Virus record (IMG/VR): IMGVR_UViG_3300020379_000624
Coordinates: 1-26,383 of that record
Direction: 5' to 3' (one strand)
Length of the DNA stretch: 26,383 bases
From: a virus
Taxonomy: Duplodnaviria; Caudoviricetes
Positions 1-26,383 of this stretch are shown in pieces. How positions within the stretch are numbered: position 1 is the stretch's first letter; every line of letters starts with the position of its first letter. The notes under the pieces were generated by a model. The model was not told the origin of the DNA. It ran no database searches and saw only the letters and a list, made by a program, of their open reading frames with translations. A program made the translations under genes and the position numbers.

Positions 1-487
1 CTGTTAATGGATCAGATATCGGGACACTTGTGTAACACTGTAGTTTGTAATCCTTTGGTTGTAGATGTTGTCGTTCAATCTGATCTACTGCATGATCGAA
101 ACACATGAACCAAGATAGATTAAACTTACCTGTTTTTGGTTCTAATCTCCATGGCATACTATTACATGGGAACAATTCGATCTTACTACATCTTGTGTGT
201 TTAACTCCTCTGTTCTTGGCGGATGTTCTCGTTTGTTTGGTTGACGTACTCGTCGTAGATTTGGTCGAAGTCCTTACCTTCTGACTCTGATTCGAGGTAG
301 TTGTTGATTTCTTCTGCTTTGATGTCGTAAGGGATTTTAGACCTTTGTTCAGATTCTGTTGTGTCTTCGACTTTACTGAGGACGATACTGTTTTCTTGGA
401 TCTTCCAGTCGATTTCTGTACCTTCGTCCCAACCGAGTTGGAGGATGATACTTTCTGGGATTTCGAGGAAGAGTTCTTCTGTTTCAT
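1..487 (-). CDS. Hypothetical protein, 3'-truncated at the window edge; Ser/Thr/Lys-rich basic N-terminal region plus small globular C-terminal domain; overlaps the AbrB-like gene in the +1 frame
   Basis: Hand translation from ATG at 487 gives 162 codons with no stop before the window edge: MKQKNSSSKSQKVSSSNSVGTKVQKSTGRSKKTVSSSVKSKTQQNLNKGLKSLTTSKQKKSTTTSNQSQKVRTSTKSTTSTSTKQTRTSAKNRGVKHTRCSKIELFPCNSMPWRLEPKTGKFNLSWFMCFDHAVDQIERQHLQPKDYKLQCYTSVPISDPLT. Absent from the ORF track, presumably because it has no stop in the window. A shorter in-frame alternative start exists at ATG 157. Confidence 0.7.
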   Translation of the reverse strand, partial: MKQKNSSSKSQKVSSSNSVGTKVQKSTGRSKKTVSSSVKSKTQQNLNKGLKSLTTSKQKKSTTTSNQSQKVRTSTKSTTSTSTKQTRTSAKNRGVKHTRCSKIELFPCNSMPWRLEPKTGKFNLSWFMCFDHAVDQIERQHLQPKDYKLQCYTSVPISDPLT

Positions 488-515
488 CTGTTCCGATAAT
501 AGTGAGTAATTCCAT
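201..515 (-). CDS. AbrB/MazE/SpoVT-like swapped-hairpin DNA-binding domain protein with acidic C-terminal tail
   Basis: LFLEIPESIILQLGWDEGTEIDWKIQENSIVLSK fits the AbrB/MazE pattern (l.IP..i...LG...G..v........i.l). The start overlaps the upstream stop (TAATG). Confidence 0.75.
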   Translation of the reverse strand: MELLTIIGTDETEELFLEIPESIILQLGWDEGTEIDWKIQENSIVLSKVEDTTESEQRSKIPYDIKAEEINNYLESESEGKDFDQIYDEYVNQTNENIRQEQRS

Positions 516-1195
516 TAGTCAATATACCCATTCTTTTTTAACCATTCACCAGTCATAGGGGTCGGATCATAATCTGTCCACATTGACTTGTTAGCACACG
601 ATTGTAATGCTTTCATAGTCATACCCTCTGTTCTACCTGCCCATTGCGCTTCTGCTTCCCATGGTACACTTGCTTCAGGATATGTACGCTCTGCTAGGAC
701 TCTCCATAGCATTGGTACACTCTCTTCAGGAAGAATAATAGCAATCATACTATTGTCAATGGTGCCTGCCATACAATCTTGCGCGGCATGCCATCCTTCG
801 TGACGCATCAACATCATCAAAGTACCAGGATCACCCATGTAATCCCTGTTCAAATAGAAGTTGTTGGATACTGTGTGATAGACACCACGATGACCTTCAG
901 GGAAATAGTATTCATCAGCAAGATATACTTTGACACCAATTTGATTCAGTGTCATCAACATCATGTTGAATTCTGCTGCATACGGTGTGAATGCTTCCAT
1001 ATTAGGATACTCATGTGAGATATCCAATAGGGTGAACACTTCATCAACGTCTTCCTTACACTCACGTAGCATCATACAACCCATAGAGTCATATGATTTG
1101 AAACCTTGTGTGATCTTGCTTTCATTAGCAAATACTGCTGCTGTTGCCATTGTAGCAGCAATACCTGCTGCGTACATCATCTTACGTAAGACCAT
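515..1195 (-). CDS. Putative exported zinc metallopeptidase (HExxH zincin)
   Basis: N-terminal Sec-type signal peptide (MVLRKMMYAAGIAATMATAAVFA), HEGWH motif in MRHEGWHAAQDC, and downstream WEAEA as a candidate third zinc ligand. Confidence 0.7.
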   Translation of the reverse strand: MVLRKMMYAAGIAATMATAAVFANESKITQGFKSYDSMGCMMLRECKEDVDEVFTLLDISHEYPNMEAFTPYAAEFNMMLMTLNQIGVKVYLADEYYFPEGHRGVYHTVSNNFYLNRDYMGDPGTLMMLMRHEGWHAAQDCMAGTIDNSMIAIILPEESVPMLWRVLAERTYPEASVPWEAEAQWAGRTEGMTMKALQSCANKSMWTDYDPTPMTGEWLKKNGYID

Positions 1196-14434: not shown

Positions 14435-17400
14435 TCAGACCTCCATTAACCACCAACCTTGTACGGAAGTAGGAATACCAACCTGTCCATCACTATCAGT
14501 TGCTCCTAGGTATACCAAACTAAATGCTGCATTAGCAGTTTGTACAACTAGTTCTCCTGAAGGATATGGGGTGATTCTACCACCGAGAAGTGTTCCTGTG
14601 CTGTCTCCTTGAATTGGAACATTAGAAGATTCTTCTGTTCTAACCACGAGAGAAGTGTTATAATTTAGATTACCACTAACGTCAATCAATCTAACAACAT
14701 CTCCAGTTTGTGGGGAGGTTGGAAGTTTCACTACAAGTGTAGAGGTTGCTGTAGTATTTACCATGTAAGTAATGTTGGCTTTCAGGTTGAGTTGTTCTTC
14801 TGTAGATGCAGAAGAAATATATCTCGTGTGTCTACCACCAGAAGAGGTGTAGAAGTTAGTATATCCAAAGGAATCAATGGAGTTATCTTGCTTAATAGCA
14901 AACTTCTTACCACCACTTGGACCAAGATTCTTAACAGAAAGTTGTTCAACAGTTGTAGATGGAGTTGCTTGTGCAACACCTTCGACTGTGAATGTCGTCT
15001 CTGCACCAACGTTACCTAAGTTATCAACGAAGAATGATGGTACAGTAGAGTCAGGATTCTGAATTACGTTCTCAGGATCTGATGCACTGAAGAGATAGAA
15101 GTCACCTCTTGCAACAACACCTGCATCCCAGAAGAATAGACCTTGGTGATCAGCGTGACCGTCATCGTTAACTAATCCAAGTAATCTTGTCTTGTTAACA
15201 GAGTCATAGATCTCGAAACTACCACCAATCATTCTAAGATCACTGGAAACTGTTAGATCTCCAGATCTGTATTCAATTGCACCTGCCTTGATCTGCTCAT
15301 CCATTACAGTGGTATGAACAACTCCTCTCATTCTGCCCTTAACAGCAGCCCAGATCATTGCATCACCCTCACCATCAGCAAGAGCAATCCAACCAAGGTA
15401 ATCTAGTTTTTGCTGTACAATATAACCTCTATCAAGGATAATAGAGCAGTAATCGCTAGTTGCACCAGAGACAACTCTTTGTCTGGTTTCACAATCAATA
15501 ATGTTAGCAAGTTCTGGGTGCTTAAGAACTCTTCTTACAACGTTTCCTACGTCGAAGATGTTATCGCCTGGAACGAATGGTTGATCTGTATCTAAACCAT
15601 CACCTGGGTTAGAAACAACAATCGTTGGATTATTACCAGTGATAACCTGTACAATCTTACAGATTTGGAAATCTCCAATACCTGTAGATGCTGCAGATGT
15701 TGTTCCAATGAATACTAAATCATCAACCGCAAATGCACCAGTTCCAATACCAAGATCTTGTACAGGAACCTGTACTAGGTTAGAAGAACCTGTTGCAGTA
15801 TCTCTAACTGTTGTGGAAGGACCACCAGCGTTGATTGTTTGTGGATCATACCAGAATCCATATGCTCTCTTGATAGTTCCAGCATCAAATAGTGCAGGAA
15901 TACCAGCAGTGGTAGATGATGTATTACCAGCAGCAGCATATTCAATATCGATTCTACCGTAGTGGTTACCAATCTGAGTAGTTCCAGTACAAGTATCAAC
16001 ACTGAATGTTGGTACTTCATTACCATTGGTTAGAGTAAACTTCTCGTTTCTTCTTGCTTCAAAGGTGAATGTACCAGAGGAAGCACCAACAATATTCTGA
16101 TTAACAACAATTTCACCAGCTACTGGATTGATAGCAGTAATATATGTGTCTGGTAGAATATCCAGAGAAGCTTCATTAGTGATGATAGCGATGTAATCAC
16201 CAACTTGAATGTCAGCAAGTGTCTTATCAGGAGATGTTACGGTAACACCAGTTAGAACAAACGATCCAGAGAAACTTGCTGCAGTAAATGCAATCTTGGA
16301 AACTGTACCACAACCACCCTTAATTTTTAAACTATTGTTGATTGTAGTGTTACCAAGAATTGTAGTATCACCAGTTACAGAGTTAACAACAAATACATCA
16401 CCAGCAGCACCTGCAGAACAGTCACTAGAGATAGTAAACTTCTGCTCATCAGCACTTAGTGGAGTAACAACCTTGATTACTTCACCCTGATTAAAGATGC
16501 CATCGTTGTTAGTATCTTCACGATCAACAATTACGTAATCGTTGTTCGTTAGTGCTCCACCAAACTCAGCAAGGTATACATTGTCCTGAGGACCAGTAGA
16601 ATCTAATGCCTGCTCAGTCCACGTAGCATCAAACTGTACGTTAACCTTGTAGATAGGTGTAGTATCAGCATGATTTGCAAGAATTGCAGTGTATGTACCA
16701 AGTGGTTGACGCTTAACCTTGAGGTAGTAAGGAGCAACAGCAGTTCTGGTTAGTTCTAGAACCTGAACGATTTCAGGATGTCCACTAGCAGTGATTGCAC
16801 TGTTAATGATGATGTAATCATTCTCTACAAAATATGGATCACCATTATTTTTGATTGGTTGATTCTTAATTGGTAAGTAGAACTCATCACCCGTTAGTAG
16901 TGGGAATGTCTGAGGTTCAACAAGTGGTGAACCACCAATGTTTGTAACTTCCTGCTGATATGCAGCACCACCCCAAAGACCAGCACCAGCGGTATCAACT
17001 TGGTTGTAACCTTCATCAGTTGTTCCTACAACTAGAACGTTGAGAATATCAATGTTCTTATTGAATAATGTATCACTTAGGATACCATCATCATGTGCGA
17101 AAGGAGAAGATCCAAGTTGTCCTCTGTTTCCTAGGAAGGAGAACGATGCAACACCACCACACATTGTGATGTTACCTTGGAATGTAGCAGAAGCAATAAC
17201 TTCTAACTGGTTGTTGATTGTAGTAACACCACCCTGACCAGCAATATTAATTTCAGATGCATTTAGACCGAAGTTAATAGTAGATGCAGAACCAGAGTTA
17301 GAGAAGAAGTCAACTTGTCCAGCAGTAGTAGATAGTGTTACAGTATCATTAATAGTTCTTCTTGAACCTAACTGGAAGTCACCATCAACCTTGAAGGATT

Positions 17401-20400
17401 TGGTCTTGACTCTAGTAAAGGATAGAGATTCGCTACTATCATATGCACCACCAATATTAATCTTAGAAATTGTTCCAGCACCGTCAGAAGGACGATTGTC
17501 TGGTGTTGCACCAAGATCAATGTTACTATGCTCAGATGAATTACCAATGTTGACGAACTGATCACCAGTTACATTGTCACCAAGGTTAATTGTCTGAGTG
17601 AGAGTTCTAACATTACCAATGTTAATGAACTGTGTATCACCAGCAAGATTTAATGTACCAGTGAATGTGGCATCAGTTACAAGATTAAATGTACCTGATG
17701 TCTGAGAAGTTCTAATCTCCGCAGTTGTACCATCATCACCATTGACTTCGATGTCATGCTCAAAGCGAGCATCATCAGTAAATCTAGATGTGCCGTCAAC
17801 AACGAATGCTCTATCAAGTTGAGAGTTATCAACATTAATACCAACACGACCATTGTTTGTAGTAGCAACTCTTAGAACTGCCTCATCATTAGGAGCAGCA
17901 CTGTCACCACCAACTAAGAATGCATTGTTTTCATCTGTCTTATCACGATCAGCAAAATCAGTGTGCTGTAGGTAATCACCAGTGGTGCGACCACTAATGA
18001 ATGCAGTACCAACAACGTCAAGGTTTGCACGAGGATCAGTAGAAGCATCTACAAACTGTTTCTGATAAGCATCATGTGGAGCACGAGCAACAGTGTTGAT
18101 ACCTAACTTGTAATCACCAATTGTTTCTGTCTCTGTTCTAAGTGCTTCAGCACCAATAACTCCAAGTTCTTTGAAGTTAGCATTAGAGAACTCAATGGAT
18201 GGATCAGGTTGTCCAGTGGTTTTTCCTGCGAGGAAATTTTCCCAAGGAATAGTATCAGTTGCTTTCTGATTGATGATCTGGAAGTGACAGTAGTTATTAG
18301 CTGGGTTGAATGGATCACCTGGCTTGCTGTATACAATCCAAGTAAGGTTCATATCACCTAAACTATAGTTGTCATTGTTATACCAGTTCTTCAGACGAAT
18401 CTGAGAAGCAGAAGTAATACCAATGTCAGCACCAACTTGAAGTGCAGTGCCACTATTGAAATCTCTGAACGAAACTTTAACAACGTTAGTACCGTCAAAG
18501 ACGATGTTATCAATCTGAGTGTTAGGAATTTGTGAGAAGTAGTTAGCAAGAACCCATGCAATAGATCCACTCTTACCTACTTCCTCACCCTTGAATAGGA
18601 TGTCACCAGGAGAAGGAATTACACCACCATAAGTGATGTACTGAGATCCATCAATTCTAGAACCACCATTAGCAATCAATGGAGATTGGTTAGGAGTTGC
18701 ATTAGATGCTACACCAGCTAAGGTGTGTGTCTGCATCATGTAATCCTGACCATTACCTCTAGAGTTGAAAGCAAAGATAGCAGCATCAATTCTGTTCTTA
18801 CCGATGATGATATCACCAGTGTCTACTGGAGTAAATGCTTGTCTGTCTAGACCTTCATCTTGTTCTGCCTGTGTTACTTGATCAATCGATTCTACATAAG
18901 AACGAATAATCAGAGGAGCACGGGATTGTGATAGATCTTCATCCTGAACAGAGATAGTTACAGGAGATTCAAAGTTATTAACTAACTGTCCATCACCACC
19001 AACAACTGTGATATTCTGGTTGAATGTTACAGGTGTATCGAAGGTAGTAACTAGACCGTCTAGTACATCATCCTCGTCTCCATCATCATTCAATCTAGCA
19101 GCATCGATGAATGTTTCTTCACCAGTGATAGCATTAATTCTTCTATTACCGATGTATAGATCACCTTGGGAGTTAATACCCGTGTAGAAGACGATACCAC
19201 CGTCTTGTTTCTTACTTTGGGCGTAGAAGTCCTCATCAGGTGTTAAGACAATCTCCTGACGTGCTGGGAGACCAGTGGAGTAGTTACCTGGACCGAAACC
19301 AAGGTATTCAAACGTGTGGTTACCTGCACGAGCAATAGATGGTCTTCTAAGTTCAACATAGTAACGCTGATCTGTGAAGGAAACATCACCAGTACCACCA
19401 ATAGGAATCAATCTCTGTTCAGATCCAGAAGTTGCATTACCACTCTGTGCTTGAATGGTGTAGATATTTTCTCTGAATGCAGGTTGATCTGTTAGATCAT
19501 CAACCATCTCTCTAGTTACAGATCCCTTAAAGTCGTTAACTGTAACTAAACCATGTACATAGTTGTCAGCAGCAGAGAATGTTGATGGTGGATCAATCAA
19601 TCCAGCATAGTAATCTTTCTCTTTTGGTGAAGTACCAGAGCTCTTAAACCAGAGAGGATCATTCCTGTAGTTAAGAGGATATAGTTTGCTGATTGGTTGA
19701 GAGAACTTAAACTTCTTAAAGTTATTAGTAATACCAGCACCAGTTGGGAATGGTGACATATTACCACGTAGTGCAGTTAGATAGTAGATACCATCTTGCT
19801 GACCTGCAATTCTACGTTGTAGTGTCTCATAACCGAAGACATAGAATGTGTCTTCAATGATACCTGCATCATCAACTCTATCAACATAGTATTCAACACC
19901 AGCATCATCCTGAATACGATCACCAGGGGTGATGGTATAAACGTTAGCGCCGTTTTGCTTGTAGAAAAACTCAGGATTATTTTTTCTGATTTGAGTTTTC
20001 AGAGGTAGGGATTTGCCCATGTCCTGATCCTCAAGCATGTCAGCAAAGACAGTGCCCTGTTGGAATCTTGTGTTGGCATACTCACTGTACTCTAGATCAC
20101 CGTTACGGATGTTCTTGATGATGATGTAATGGTCACCACCAACAGTGTAGTAAGCATGGATGTTAGCAAGACCAGAAGAATTACCACTGAAGTTAACAGC
20201 ATTAGGAGATGAAGATGTATTATCAACCTTACTGGTTACAAAGATACCACCCTGAGGAGCAGTAATCTTAACAGTAGTGAATGTCTCGTTTCTTAGACCA
20301 GGGAAGTTCTTAACATCAACACCATGATCATACAGAGTCAATTCTGTATACTCAATGCTATCATCTAAAGCATCTTTGATCTTACGACCAGATTGAATAG

Positions 20401-23400
20401 TTGCTTGAATACCAGAGGAGAATCTTGCGAATGATCTGTACTCAATACCAGCACCTGTTTGATCCCTTCTGAATGGATCATAAGTTCCAGTTGTATCACC
20501 AATAAATTCAGTAGCATCAACTGGGTTCTGGAATCTAGCACCATAGACAGTACCTACAACTGGTTTCAATAGAACCTTCTGTGGTACTAACTTACGTGTA
20601 TCGTCAGTCCTTGTCTTGATAACAAATCCATTGATAGGATCTCTTGCGTTCTCAAGATACTTAGGAATGACCATACGAATCTTGTATGTTCTTTCATCCT
20701 TATCACGGTTATCTTCTAGACGCTCATACCACATATCAGTGGATCTTGGACGATCCTTAAGATCATTCTGAGCAATTCTGTAGAAGATATTATCTTCTAG
20801 TTCACTAGGAGTTGACTTACCTGTGACTTCATCCTTACACTGGATGTACCACTTACCATTAGTTGCAATAGCGTCAGTGAAACTAGGATCGAATCGCATT
20901 GGCGAACGACGCTTGTTAGCATAGACATTGAACTTAAGACCAGATTGACCAGATGCAAATGTAATTGGATTTACATTGTTGATCGCATCAGCATATGTTA
21001 GGTGAAGTGTAAGTGTCTTATTGTTCTGATAACGTGTGAAGAATTCAACATTAGGATTGATTCTACCGATAGCAGAGTTTTGTGGATCAGTAACAGCAAC
21101 GTTAGGATCATTGACATATGTCTGAGAAATTAGAGGTAGAACACCACCTTCAACAGCTCTGATGAATGCCTTCTGTGGTGTTACACCAGCATTAGGAACG
21201 TCAAAGATGTGAGATACATCTGTCTCAATACCAGCAATGATTGAACCACTGAGTTTACCAGTGTAGTTGTGTAGATCATACTTGTCATCTAGGACAAACT
21301 GATAGAGATCGATCTCAACATCCTTATCAATTGCATCAGTTTCAGATGCGTAGATATAGATACCTGCTGCTGCATTCTCCTTAGAGGTTGCAAGCATCAA
21401 TCTAGTTTGATCACTACCATCGAAGAATGATGTAGCACCGTAGTTTTCTGGTTGTGTGACTCTACCTGGAGCAATTACATAGTATGTTCTGTTAGTTTCA
21501 AATCCATTAGGTAGGCGAACAAGACGCTTATCAACATCAACATACTTACCTGTGACTTGATCAAAACGAGGACGTGGTACTAATCTTACAGGTGTACCAG
21601 TTTCAAAGTCATGTGGGTTAGAAGGACCACTACCAGAAACGTCAATTGTAAATACTGTAGCTCTAGATGCTAGAAGTGCAGTGTTAACTGTCTGTTCTTG
21701 TCTAGTAACTGAACCAAGACCACTATTAATAATCGTGGTGATGTTACCAACTAATGTTTCAATAGCATCAGCAGTAGAAGAACACTCTCTATTAGTAGAA
21801 GAGGTTGTAGTGTCAGCAATAACATCAGGACCCTCATTCTCAGGACCAACAACTACTGTGTTTGGTAGAGTGTCTGCCCAGATACCATTTTCATATACAA
21901 AGTATAGATCAACAGATGTGCTATTTTGTAATGCATTTACAGAAACACCTTCACTTAATCTAGAACCTTTAACACCAAGTTCAATCTGTGTGTTACTGAT
22001 AATGTTCTTGACATATGTACCAGCAGGGATGTTAGAGTAAACTGCAGTTGGGTTGCTTCCTAGTACACCAGGAGCACCATCGTTATCACGATAAGAAGCA
22101 GCAGTGTATTCAGTAACACCCATACCAATGATGATGCCACGAGTATCATTAACATCAACGATAGCAGAACCAATAGATGTAGTACAGTTATATGCAAGAA
22201 CATCGAAGTTTCTCATGGCAGCAGTTGCCATCTGTCCTACGTAATCCCATGCGTCTAGTGTCTCTGTCTTCTCTCCATCAATATATTCTAGGTTGTTACC
22301 AACATAGTATGCTTCACCTGCCTGTACCGAGTTAGAGTTTCCACCCAATCTCAAGTCATTAACAACAGCATCAACGATGTAAGTAACGTCACGGAAACAC
22401 TTAGATGCTTCATTGTTGATTGTAAAGTCACCTGTGTTTAGTGTAGGTAGACCAGCAAGTGTGCCGCCAACGATTGCATCCTGTAGGATATCAAATAGTG
22501 TCTCAATAGATCCACGAACGTTTGCACAATCCCACTCACCATTGTTTAGAGGTGGTAGGTTGTCAAGGTTACCTTCATTGAGGGAGTTACATGCAATATC
22601 AACCAATGCGTTAACAGTTGCAAGAACATCAGAACAGTTACCATCTGCATATGTAGATGGTTGATACTTACCAGATGCTCTAGGATATGCATGTGTACTT
22701 ACATTTGCATCCTTAGTACACTTAAAGATTAAGGACTCTTCCTTAAGTTTGATGCTAGTGTTTGTACTCAAACTATGAGCACCAATTGTTAGAGCAATAG
22801 AACCAGTTGCAGGATCATATACTGCATTAGATACGTTATGCTCAACTAGAGGAGATGCACCAATGTTAAAGGTGATGCTGTAAGTAGTTACAGAATCAAC
22901 AGCAATGTTAGAACCAGCAAAAGGATCAATACCAGGACGTGGATATGACTTAGTAGTTGCATTGCCATCCATATCACATGAGAATGTGAATGCATTATCA
23001 GTCAAGGAAATTTGATCACTAGAAGTTACACCGTGTGCTGTACCGAAGTACAGAGTCATGGCACCACTTGTAGCATTGTAAGTAGCATTTGTTGGTGTTA
23101 ATGTACCACCATTAAGTACGCTGACAGAGTTAGCAGCAGCACTTACAAATGTGTGAGCATATCCACCACCAGATACAACAGCACCAGCTGCAGCAGCAAT
23201 GAATGTGTGTGGATATTGATCACCAGATGCAGATGCACCAACATTAACTGTAATAGAAGTAGCAGTAGTGCTAATGATGTTAAGTGCAGCGTTCCATGCA
23301 GGATCAGGACCGTCTAGTGTTGTTCTAACAATACCATCAAGGTTACCAACTCCACCGTCATTACCAATTGCTTGGATAACAATACCAAACAGAGTATCAA

Positions 23401-26383
23401 CAGCAGCAACAGCAGAACCACACTTAGGTAGTAGTTCAGTTGCATCCCAATCTTCTACAATTGTATCATCAATCTTCTGAACAAAAGCATTACCAGCAGA
23501 AACAGATACTGTCTCATTCTTGATAACCTGCATTGCGATGTTCTTCGCTTCGGTCATTACCTTAGCAGCTTCATCACGCTCAGCATCAAGGAACGTAGAG
23601 ATGTTAGTACCAGTTTGATAGTCGTAGTTGGTGACATAGATCTTAGCAGCATCATATGTCTTATAGTTACCACCAAACTTAACGTCCCACATAACTTCTT
23701 TAAGGACGGTGATAACATCATCCTTACAATCTTGTGGAGTATTGTTTTCCTGTGGTGTGTAAGCAGGATATGCAGAAATCATACGAAGATATGCTTCTTC
23801 GGCAATGAAATCTAGGTTATCAAGAACCATGTCATGTGCATCACACTCGATGTTTCCTACGATTGGAGGATCACCAGTTGTGTCAAGTGTAATGTTAAGG
23901 TCACGATCATAGTATGTGTTAGTCAATGCACGCTGCATCAATTCTTCAGCACGCTTGAATGCAGTGATAGAAGGTTCAACTTCAGCATCAACACCGTTAG
24001 CGATTAACTGGTTACCATTGAAGTATTCTTTAGTTGCAGCAATAGTAAACTCGTTACCACCAAACCAAAGGTCTTGTGCAACAGCGTCAACAACAATACC
24101 AAGGTCTCTACGACACTTAGCTTCACCAGTGATGAATGTTCCAGCATTTGCTGGGTTGTTCCAGATACCACCAGTGATGTTACCAGCAGTGATTGCATCA
24201 GTAACAATAGTTCCTAGAGTATCAACAGCAGATTGAACATCAGCACATGCACTAGAACTTGTTCTGCTTGTGACTGCAGAGTTCTGTTTTACAACAGCAT
24301 TTGCATCTGCACCTACGAACGTGTGGTTATAGTTACCACCAGAGATAACTGCATTTGCAGTAGCAGATACAAATGTATGTGCAGTTGTATTAGTGGAAGG
24401 AACGTTCTTCAGTACCTGAACTGTAATTGTAGTTGCAGTTGCTGATAAGATAGGAAGTGCAGTTTCGTAGAATGGATCAGTTGAACGAGGATAAGTGTGG
24501 TTAGTTTGATTATTATCTTCATCACATGTGAATGTCAAAGAGTTAGCTGCAATCTTAATGCTTGTGCCAGTTGCTAAACTATGAGCACCAATCGTCAATT
24601 CCATCAATCCTGTTGTAGGATTGTAATCTGCATCAGAAACGTTGAAGTTAACAATAGGTGATGTACCTACATTGACTTCAAATGTGTCATTAGTTTTGTT
24701 AGCAACTGTCAACCATGTATTATAAGTTGGGTCAGATGCTCTTGGATATGTCTTCCATCCAGTTACTGAACCGACGTTAACTGAGATAGTTGTACCAGTT
24801 GCAGATATAATTGGAAGTGACTGGTTAAATGCAGGATCAGTTGTCCTTGGGTAAGTGTGAGTGGTAGCATTGCTATCCTTATCGCAAGTGAACGTTAACG
24901 AGTTTGTTGCGATAGTAATTGAATCATTAGCTGTGTAACTATGGTTACCAATTGTTAATTCAAGAACACCAGTGGTAGGTGAATACGCTGCATCAGTTAC
25001 ATCTTTATCAGTAGTACCATTAACAGTTACTGCATTGGTAGCTACTCCACCTGCCCATGTGTGTGGAGAACCAGTACCCATGTCACATGTGAATGTTAAC
25101 GAATCTCCTAAGAACTTAATCTGATCTCCATTAGCAAGACCATGACCAGCAATAGTTGTTACTAGAGTTCCAGTTGTTGCATTATATGTTACATCAGTAG
25201 GAGTTCCTACATTAGTTTGTGAACCAGCATAAGTGGATCCACCTTCTGTTACTGTTAAATCTTTATAGTATAACTGGTTAGTAATCGCCTTCTTCATTTC
25301 GTTGATGGCGGTATTATATGCAGTTACACTTTCTGCTTCCTCACCCACAAGACCATTGCTTAGAGGTGTAGTTGCATTAGTGAAGTATTGCTCAGTGAAT
25401 GTTCTGGTATGCTTGTTACCTTCACAGAACATGTCAACAGTGATTGCATCAATGAAGTATCCAATGTCACGAGCACACTTAAGTTCACCAGGTCCCCTAC
25501 CTTCACCATAGTTAACCTCAATAGGCATGGTGTTGAGGTTACCGTTAGAAAGAATTGTGGTAACGATACTTGTTAGTGAATCAACTGCAGATTGAACATC
25601 AGAGCAGAGGAATTCTTGAGCATTGAACTGGTTATCAGTATTGCCAGCAAATGTAACTGCGTCAGCAGCAGCACTTACGAATGTATGTACATAGTCACCA
25701 CCAGTGATAACTGCTCCAGCTGTTGCACCTACGAATGTATGTGGATCAGTGTTTGTTGATGGGATAGTTGTTAATACTTGGAGTGTAATTGTGGTTGCAG
25801 TTACTGACTCAATTTCAATTGAAGTATTATAGAATGGGTCATTACCATTTGATCTAGGATATGACTTCTCAGCAGCAGCACCAGTAGCACCACCAAATCC
25901 ACAACTGAATGTTAGTGAGTTAGGTGCTAATCTTACATGTGTACCAGCTGCCAAACTATGAGCACCAATCTCAAGAACCATCAATCCTGTGTTAGGATCA
26001 TATGTTGTTCCTGTAGTTGGTGTGAATGTTACCTCAGGTGATGCACCAACATTAACTGTGATACTATCTGTTGTGGATGCAGTGATCTCAATGTACTGTC
26101 CAGATACTGGGTCAGTTGCACGAGGATATGTCTTGTTAGAAGTATTACCATCCATTGTGCAGGTCATTGTCAATGCATTATCTGCAATCTTGACACGATC
26201 ACCAACACTCAATCCATGATTAGCAATATCAAGAACCAATTCACCAGTAGATGCAGTGTATGCTGCACCATGTGGTGTATACTGCTTAGTTACCTGACCA
26301 TATGCAGAACCAGGTGCATTGTCTGCAGTTCTGAATAGATCCTTCTCATAAAGCTGATTAGTGATCGCTTTCTTGATCATCTC
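14435..26383 (-). CDS. Giant virion structural / long tail fibre-like protein (>3,981 aa, 5'-truncated by the window edge)
   Basis: The frame is open to the edge (in-frame GAG at 26383-26381), and the first residues [14 protein letters not shown] repeat the internal [14 protein letters not shown], so the track's Met is internal. Contains [30 protein letters not shown], fibre-shaft motifs (LGINT..[15 protein letters not shown]) and a C-terminal YMVNTT...[17 protein letters not shown] domain typical of T4-like fibre proteins. Confidence 0.9.
   Translation of the reverse strand, partial: [3982 protein letters not shown]
22200..25620 (-). repeat. Four diverged alpha-helical modules with C-x-R/D-D...D...GGN motif and associated C..v.sav.tL..iv helices
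   Basis: [22 protein letters not shown] (25480), [22 protein letters not shown] (24118), [22 protein letters not shown] (23731), [22 protein letters not shown] (22402). Confidence 0.85.
22680..26280 (-). repeat. Seven diverged ~95-aa beta-rich modules (Y.p.TG.l.ltig.H.l..g..i....nsltFtC..d.....k/hYPR..DP.....l.i...t.ttitvnvG...HTFv.a..nav) in three clusters
   Basis: Seven YPR motifs and seven HTF/HTW strands counted in the translation; clusters at about 25640-26280, 24290-25200 and 22680-23310. Confidence 0.85.

Follow-up and report, generated by a model that had tools for sequence, protein, structure and literature searches.

A conserved and apparently undescribed dual-coding region with an exchangeable host gene in cyanophages

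Known overlapping genes and the cyanophage locus

Overprinted genes are well known in bacteriophages, the D/E and A/B pairs of phiX174 and the Rz/Rz1 pair of lambda being examples. The pair considered here, an acidic AbrB-like gene (ORF-A) and a basic gene read in its +1 frame (ORF-B), is a case of overprinting, which is in itself already known. The nearest precedent for ORF-B is gene 30.3' of phage T4, which lies inside gene 30.3 and is annotated as 'internal translation, in a different reading frame'. As with ORF-B, it occupies the +1 frame of the same strand, has an internal start, encodes a basic product and belongs to a T4-type myovirus. In contrast, the 30.3' product has 75 aa, is fully nested, shows no visible sequence likeness and has a host gene that is not AbrB-like, whereas ORF-B leaves the overlap into a domain of its own, termed domain X, and sits over different host genes.

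One survey reports suppressed synonymous change and Ser/Arg-rich, likely disordered products for viral overprinted genes; its curated overlaps did not include bacteriophages or any genome larger than 30 kb (PMC6195259). The present locus differs in two respects. The overlap looks mutual, with an N-terminal extension of ORF-B lying over the ORF-A core and the ORF-A tail lying over the ORF-B arm, and it behaves as an exchangeable module. In large dsDNA phages it is rare for long overlaps under selection to be curated, and our literature search of open-access papers found no description of the ORF-A/ORF-B overlap. A dual-coding region with a swappable host gene is real, conserved and apparently undescribed.

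The analysed stretch of viral DNA (the window) is 26,383 nucleotides long. Its minus-strand genes comprise a tail-collar gene and other large genes, followed by small ORFs that match cyanophage PHROGs. All tblastn matches of the ORF-A and ORF-B proteins were to Synechococcus, Prochlorococcus or 'Cyanophage' records and, where a taxonomy was given, mostly to Kyanoviridae. The features of the locus are collected in Table 1; the stop of the upstream gene and the start of ORF-A share one base (TAATG). A scan for promoters and terminators stayed within chance (18 vs 12.5 +/- 4.0). At the far end, a minus-strand ORF of 3,982 codons (14435-26383) is open at the window edge; it had no Pfam match at E 0.001 and is probably a giant tail or fibre protein.

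Table 1. Features of the dual-coding locus in the window
Feature	Position	Strand	Remarks
Upstream gene, phrog_591	515..1195	-	Profile match
ORF-A, 104 aa, AbrB/MazE-like N-terminal core and acidic tail	201..515	-	phrog_661, E 1e-13
AbrB-like core of ORF-A, residues 7-56	348..497	-	Entirely dual-coding from residue 10
Putative internal ATG of ORF-B, formed by Asp10-Glu11 (GAT GAA) of ORF-A	485..487	-	28 nt after ORF-A start
ORF-B, +1 frame, ~96-aa K/S/T-rich arm then domain X	2..487	-	Runs off window edge
Dual-coding overlap, 287 nt	201..487	-	ORF-A Leu/Ile/Val/Phe and Tyr/Asp/Asn third positions all C
KTQQNLNKGLKSL in ORF-B, degenerate copy of the +1-frame motif KTQxxLEKNLxxL	329..367	-	
SESEGK motif, kept in the ORF-A frame	273..290	-	17/34 loci
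Domain X (FP..PWRLE..WF.C.DH..I.R..L..Y), single-coding	2..199	-	phrog_1609/3790/23641

The ORF-A product contains 28 acidic residues (D/E), and its core weakly matches MazE and AbrB of the AbrB/MazE/SpoVT swapped-hairpin family. The Pfam MazE profile (PF04014) gave 21.1 bits, below its cut-off of 24.7, and seven of the nine PDB profile matches were AbrB/SpoVT chains, all weak at E 0.28-0.77. A gene of this type is annotated as 'MazE' in Sf-FP1. In S-CREM1 a MazE gene is reported, and a stand-alone form of ORF-B, ORF117, is listed as hypothetical (PMC9964418).

The gene order, small and acidic followed by small and basic, recalls type II toxin-antitoxin modules. However, the two genes overlap by 200-410 nt rather than by a few bases, and X is not tied to AbrB. 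No toxin Pfam matched any of the 121 X members at E 0.05. Membership in a toxin-antitoxin system is unsupported, and obligate pairing fails: 50 of 70 AbrB loci lack X, and X occurs with another host gene, T4-GC_751 (phrog_1364), or alone. The same observations do not support the suggestion of the original prediction that the linkage to AbrB is hard-wired. A spanin pair is likewise set aside because no transmembrane or lipoprotein features were seen by eye.

ORF-B is open from its ATG to the window edge, with 162 aa visible; judged by its relatives, it would end about 9-13 residues further on. Its first 100 residues include 24 Ser, 20 Lys, 18 Thr, one Ala, no Pro and no acidic residue, the earliest acidic residue being at position 104. 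The prediction of roughly 100 aa free of acidic residues was therefore correct. The accompanying description of a histone-H1-like arm holds for the positive charge but not for the rest, as the arm has almost no Ala and no Pro and there is no winged-helix. A Lys-rich low-complexity arm is also a feature of HC2, the bacterial H1-like protein, and the stand-alone X representative P0130 matches HC2 at E 3e-6; in contrast, 120 of the 121 X members have no such match, and the arm in the window is K/S/T/Q-rich. ORF-B as a histone H1/HC2 protein was rejected: its model has one helix and four strands, it lacks a Lys/Ala/Pro tail and its profile is unmatched.

PHROG 1609, 3790 and 23641, all of unknown function, hold domain-only, C-tailed and short N-tailed forms of X, and PHROG 661 and 1364 hold the host genes. 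The long overprinted form is absent from all 14 named overlap-type records checked: the domain only is annotated in four and nothing in ten. It is sometimes called in metagenome collections (P0016 and others). Transcript, proteome and knockout studies that rely on the annotations of these 14 records would therefore miss ORF-B.

Codon bias, selection and the internal start

Within the overlap, all 22 Leu/Ile/Val/Phe codons of ORF-A are NTC (ATC 11, CTC 6, GTC 3, TTC 2). Similarly, all 17 codons of the NAC/NAT type that follow the GAT of the internal start are NAC, this GAT, which creates the ATG, being the sole NAT. Elsewhere in the window the NTC share is 0.14-0.56 in small neighbours and 0.10-0.32 in the seven large genes above 5.4 kb. 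Under the codon usage of the neighbours, and with codons taken as independent, the chance of these runs is 2e-10 for NTC and 1.5e-7 for NAC. The original prediction had reported both the exclusive NTC usage, unlike the structural genes, and a +1 frame open through 287 nt from ATG 487 (overlap 201-487), and both were confirmed. Avoidance of +1 stops, which it named besides the Ser that NTC yields in the second frame, does not explain the bias: NTT and NAT never create a +1 stop, yet they are avoided, NTT being used not once. In ORF-B, NTT and NAT would give Phe/Leu and Ile/Met, and NTC and NAC give Ser and Thr, so the bias points to selection on the composition of ORF-B.

The open +1 frame by itself is weak evidence and not striking. 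When ORF-A was resampled synonymously, in the codon-shuffle test that had been proposed, the frame stayed open in 5,800 and 4,108 of 100,000 sequences (p 0.04-0.06). Openness thus has a chance of about 0.05, and it is the NTC/NAC bias that is strong.

Homologous loci were compared with the window. Among loci L001-L066 and the window, 50 had an overlap of more than 150 nt, with L008 and L026 set aside as cut, and 34 remained after a redundancy filter below 90% identity. These 34 overlaps use NTC in 534 of 586 and NAC in 607 of 658 codons. For comparison, eight host-gene homologues that stand alone in phages of this group give 25/111 and 20/86, with 27 +1 stops in 363 codons. L006 was left out of these controls because of its 58% GC. 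It shows NTC in 13 of 17 codons and a +1 frame open into an unrelated protein, and it lacks X, so GC-rich DNA can acquire the signature in another way. This AbrB-like gene with its ATG-started open +1 frame (L006:1456-1900) may reflect a GC effect or a second, independent overlap.

A scan independent of X used a codon-neutral AbrB-core pattern and found 119 loci in about half of IMG/VR; with one added locus (120), and without seven that were not AbrB-like and 43 duplicates, 70 remained. Eighteen, some of them contigs already among the 34 overlaps, are open and in frame with X, and two are open but cut off before X. Each of the 50 X-less loci has low NTC and between one and five stops in the +1 frame. 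Past the conserved Pro, the gene ends after 31-47 codons (one 87) in stand-alone AbrB loci vs 64-113 in overlapped ones. The X side of the locus survey consisted of HMM and tblastn matches. Of 39 metagenome loci with ORF-B, 36 show both X and upstream DNA, and in every one of these a -1 ORF of at least 170 nt is open; the other three were uninformative. No overlap-type locus has a +1 stop upstream of the ELFP motif, the finding that would have counted against the original prediction.

Selection was measured in ten disjoint pairs of loci. Synonymous change per codon is 0.028 in the ORF-A core vs 0.22 upstream, an approximately 8-fold suppression (12 synonymous and 109 non-synonymous differences in 429 codons vs 213 and 139 in 966), and 15 overlapping pairs agree. 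Rates at the three codon positions are 0.19/0.10/0.14 in the core vs 0.11/0.08/0.32 upstream. This pattern rejects coding by ORF-A only (p 7e-12) and by ORF-B only (p 8e-7), pooled p-values that overstate independence because the loci are related. Given the ORF-B protein, about seven stops per locus are predicted in the ORF-A frame, yet ORF-A is open (p at most 0.002 at 33 of the 34 loci, the ORF-A stop defining the stretch). The -1 frames of four stand-alone X basic tails are closed. A loose LEKNL pattern was found in ORF-B at 30 of 34 loci, with one match spurious and the copy in the window degenerate, failing the regex used for KTQxxLEKNLxxL. The exact LEKNL occurs in 12 loci over ten different ORF-A-frame peptides, and a short form in L233 begins at a KTQxxLEKNLxxL-type motif. 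Together these comparisons make it very probable that both frames are coding. The expectation of an overprinted pair was thus upheld by homologues in which the +1 frame stays open and synonymous change is suppressed, by the positioned ATG and by the normal stand-alone controls.

Translation of ORF-B probably starts at position 487. In 20 of 20 non-redundant AbrB-type overlaps, the internal ATG lies 10-11 codons ahead of the conserved Pro. In these 20 loci, C-ending codons make up 25 of 69 in the eight codons before the ATG and 114 of 115 in the next ten; beyond the overlap they make up 271 of 754 codons in X (all 34 loci). Anti-SD pairing is weak at the ORF-B ATG (-3.5 kcal/mol vs -3.7 for ORF-A) and absent at the alternative starts ATG 157 and TTG 172, which would also cut conserved residues and truncate the domain X fold. 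An ATG at this hairpin site is present in 15 of 18 overlap loci vs 13 of 50 stand-alone AbrB loci (p 4e-5), and its presence in the latter indicates that the start is latent in the AbrB family. Three overlap loci are without it; in one of them an ATG lies two codons earlier, but not in L114 or L153. Near the ORF-A start, the 34 overlaps have an in-frame start that is ATG in 33 and TTG in one (L039, hand-assigned). One X subgroup has an in-frame Met directly before X (KVMNSRK), so a short X could be made there. Among four RNA runs, two had small shares and together gave six short contig pieces, which carry no signal of translation or strand.

In six loci (L114, L153, L085, L003, L009 and L010), the open +1 frame reaches back to an ATG within the final codons of phrog_591, and all three frames may be open over a short stretch.

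Exchangeable host genes and domain X

The arm of ORF-B is not confined to AbrB-like genes. It lies over GC_751 in S-PM2, Syn1, ACG-2014b, S-WAM2, S-RIM2, S-RIM8 and others. Like ORF-A, GC_751 is acidic, but no alignment was obtained between the AbrB and GC_751 profiles (hhalign probability 1.1%), and we treat the two families as apparently unrelated. Over a short acidic ORF without a core, the arm occurs in S-MbCM6, S-SKS1, L067 and L233-237. Separately arranged forms also exist: in S-CREM1, X carries a PAAKK arm of its own and the GC_751 homologue is separate, and in ACG-2014f, S-T4 and S-CAM7 a basic tail is C-terminal to X. At five of 13 GC_751-type loci (L028, L029, L031, L054 and L055), a stand-alone AbrB gene lies directly downstream of X, so AbrB and X are neighbours in either arrangement.

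In a tree of X (46 rows, 63 columns), well-supported branches require a minimum of three changes in the AbrB label and three in the GC_751 label; the columns are few and the root is not established. The simplest reading is that the acidic-tail/basic-arm/X block has been recombined, with some secondary losses (L048, L050). L048-L052 have only a short KKKK arm and are nested among overlap forms, indicating that some lineages can do without the long arm. Both genes exist today with and without the overlap, providing a natural experiment on how overlaps arise, on which frame yields where, and on whether the +1 frame of a neighbouring gene can supply a disordered arm.

Two further arrangements were observed. 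Coreless acidic -1 ORFs of 48-77 aa lie over the arm in L067, L233-L235, L237, L053 and L062, and are unannotated in S-MbCM6 and S-SKS1. In S-IOM18, S-RIM2 and S-RIM12 (L058, L059 and L061), the overlap cassette directly follows a tRNA cluster, upstream of GC_751.

Domain X is a cyanophage domain of ~55 aa found in 276 cyanophage records, including S-PM2, Syn1 and S-RIM2, and the window copy matches its PHROGs at E 1.5e-8 to 2e-4. The model (pLDDT 84.5) has a short strand, a hairpin, a helix and a strand, a predicted beta-beta-alpha-beta order. The top eight BFVD structure matches were all cyanophage proteins (TM 0.56-0.75). A Foldseek search of the PDB gave no match at E 0.001 or better, and no PDB sequence match was found. 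VIA-align returned nothing that we trust, neither the best row (Z 3.9, a topoisomerase II segment) nor the zinc-finger-like and T7 Gp2 rows below it (Z 2.3-2.9). DUF7441 (PF24225) scored 0.77-0.84 in Atlas, below 0.9, and is absent from the Pfam matches of the 121 members.

At E 0.001 or better there are 118 X representatives, of which 117 were located by profile; 114 of these 117 are net positive. Seventy have basic tails of 15 aa or more (35 N-terminal, 32 C-terminal, three both), 32 are without a long tail and 15 have non-basic tails. Seven representatives carry the LEKNL motif at residue 8, starting short proteins. For the short-tailed representative P0057, no viral contig was found.

Proposed role of ORF-B and alternative explanations

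With moderate confidence, we favor the explanation that ORF-B is translated from the internal ATG as a basic nucleic-acid-binding protein and that both frames are under purifying selection. Initiation would occur at ATG 487, perhaps by ribosomes that re-initiate after finishing phrog_591, whose stop lies 28 nt upstream. The resulting product of about 172 aa would attach to nucleic acid, in all likelihood phage DNA, through its basic, predicted-disordered arm, which would keep the small domain X in place there. The composition of ORF-B and the basic tails of stand-alone members argue, to a similar moderate degree, for nucleic-acid binding. X may need positive charge, which some lineages would supply with an ordinary tail and others by reading an acidic upstream gene in the +1 frame, and the acidic-tail/basic-tail/X block would be a cassette recombined behind AbrB, GC_751 or no core.

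Two alternatives concern the role of the arm, and each is tentative. The products could form a charge-matched pair in which the acidic, aromatic ORF-A tail binds and neutralises the ORF-B arm, acting as a chaperone, a DNA mimic or an antitoxin-like partner, with the overlap fixing co-inheritance and ratio. Consistent with such pairing, the acidic -1 ORF persists over the arm where the core is missing (L053, L062, L067, L233-235, L237), and the ORF-A frame keeps D[WY]xxFW (9/34 loci) and SPExxGSW (8/34) besides SESEGK, whose serine codons switch between TCN and AGY among the 17 loci with the motif. The AbrB gene just downstream of X at GC_751-type loci fits as well, and one review counts 11 viral overlaps with interacting products (PMC8227390). 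Against this, opposite charge follows automatically from the code (GAA and GAC read in +1 give Lys and Thr), stand-alone X genes with long basic tails lack an acidic -1 ORF, and ORF-A tails vary greatly in length and sequence. Direct binding of ORF-A and ORF-B seems unlikely. A complex prediction for an ORF-A dimer with domain X scored 0.00, with a poorly folded partner and with the basic arm not included, and it speaks neither for nor against such binding.

The arm could instead be a low-information linker, selected only to be open and hydrophilic so that ribosomes that start near the upstream stop reach X, with function residing in X alone, for instance in binding a phage or host protein. 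Non-synonymous differences outnumber synonymous ones in the ORF-B frame of the core (80 vs 54), short X forms exist, and the weak fold rows include a T7 Gp2-type small protein-binding domain, not significant at Z 2.3. A mere linker is at odds with the LEKNL motif that also begins short X proteins and with the recurrence of basic tails at either end of stand-alone members.

A programmed +1 frameshift, yielding an A-B fusion with no separate initiation of ORF-B, is very unlikely. It would account for two A/B chimaeras in databases (P0028 and P0033) and for the missing hairpin ATG in L114 and L153, but each chimaera is a single-member cluster from one contig, P0028 departs from the X frame towards its end, the ATG is exactly where the codon bias sets in, and the ATG is enriched in overlaps. 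The idea that the open +1 frame is a by-product of C-ending codons in a highly expressed ORF-A, with X made from ATG 157 or TTG 172, draws on the marginal openness and on GC-rich L006, but it is highly improbable and already largely refuted by the +1 stops and low NTC at X-less AbrB loci, by the absence of the bias before the ATG and past the overlap, and by the truncation of X from the downstream starts.

Returning to the favored nucleic-acid-binding reading, a lead on the role of X comes from its stand-alone forms. Eleven of 57 C-tailed representatives carry an LxxFF-type motif ([ST/N/D][LIV]xxFF; mean in shuffled sequences 0.11), and in seven the motif is no more than four residues from the C-terminus; none was seen in overlap-type ORF-B proteins. 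Such C-termini were noted on P0080, P0084, P0089, P0093, P0100, P0119, L032, L064 and L066. The cyanophage DNA polymerase gp43 ends in a similar motif in five of five records (four with FF), loci L189-L196 being part of the comparison. C-termini of this type bind the gp45 clamp of T4, according to two papers (PMC6212786, PMC2988020). By analogy, the LxxFF end of stand-alone X is a possible gp45 sliding-clamp docking site and a lead for a role at replicating DNA. It is rather unlikely that the locus as a whole is a mobile cassette, widespread in Kyanoviridae, that encodes a basic DNA-binding arm and its acidic neutraliser and is inserted by recombination behind unrelated cores, X being a new DNA factor of replication or transcription whose stand-alone LxxFF members dock on gp45. 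In ACG-2014f, the DNA polymerase matches (L193-L196) fall in two separate ORFs of 492 and 396 aa (KJ019097.1, about 125,300-126,900).
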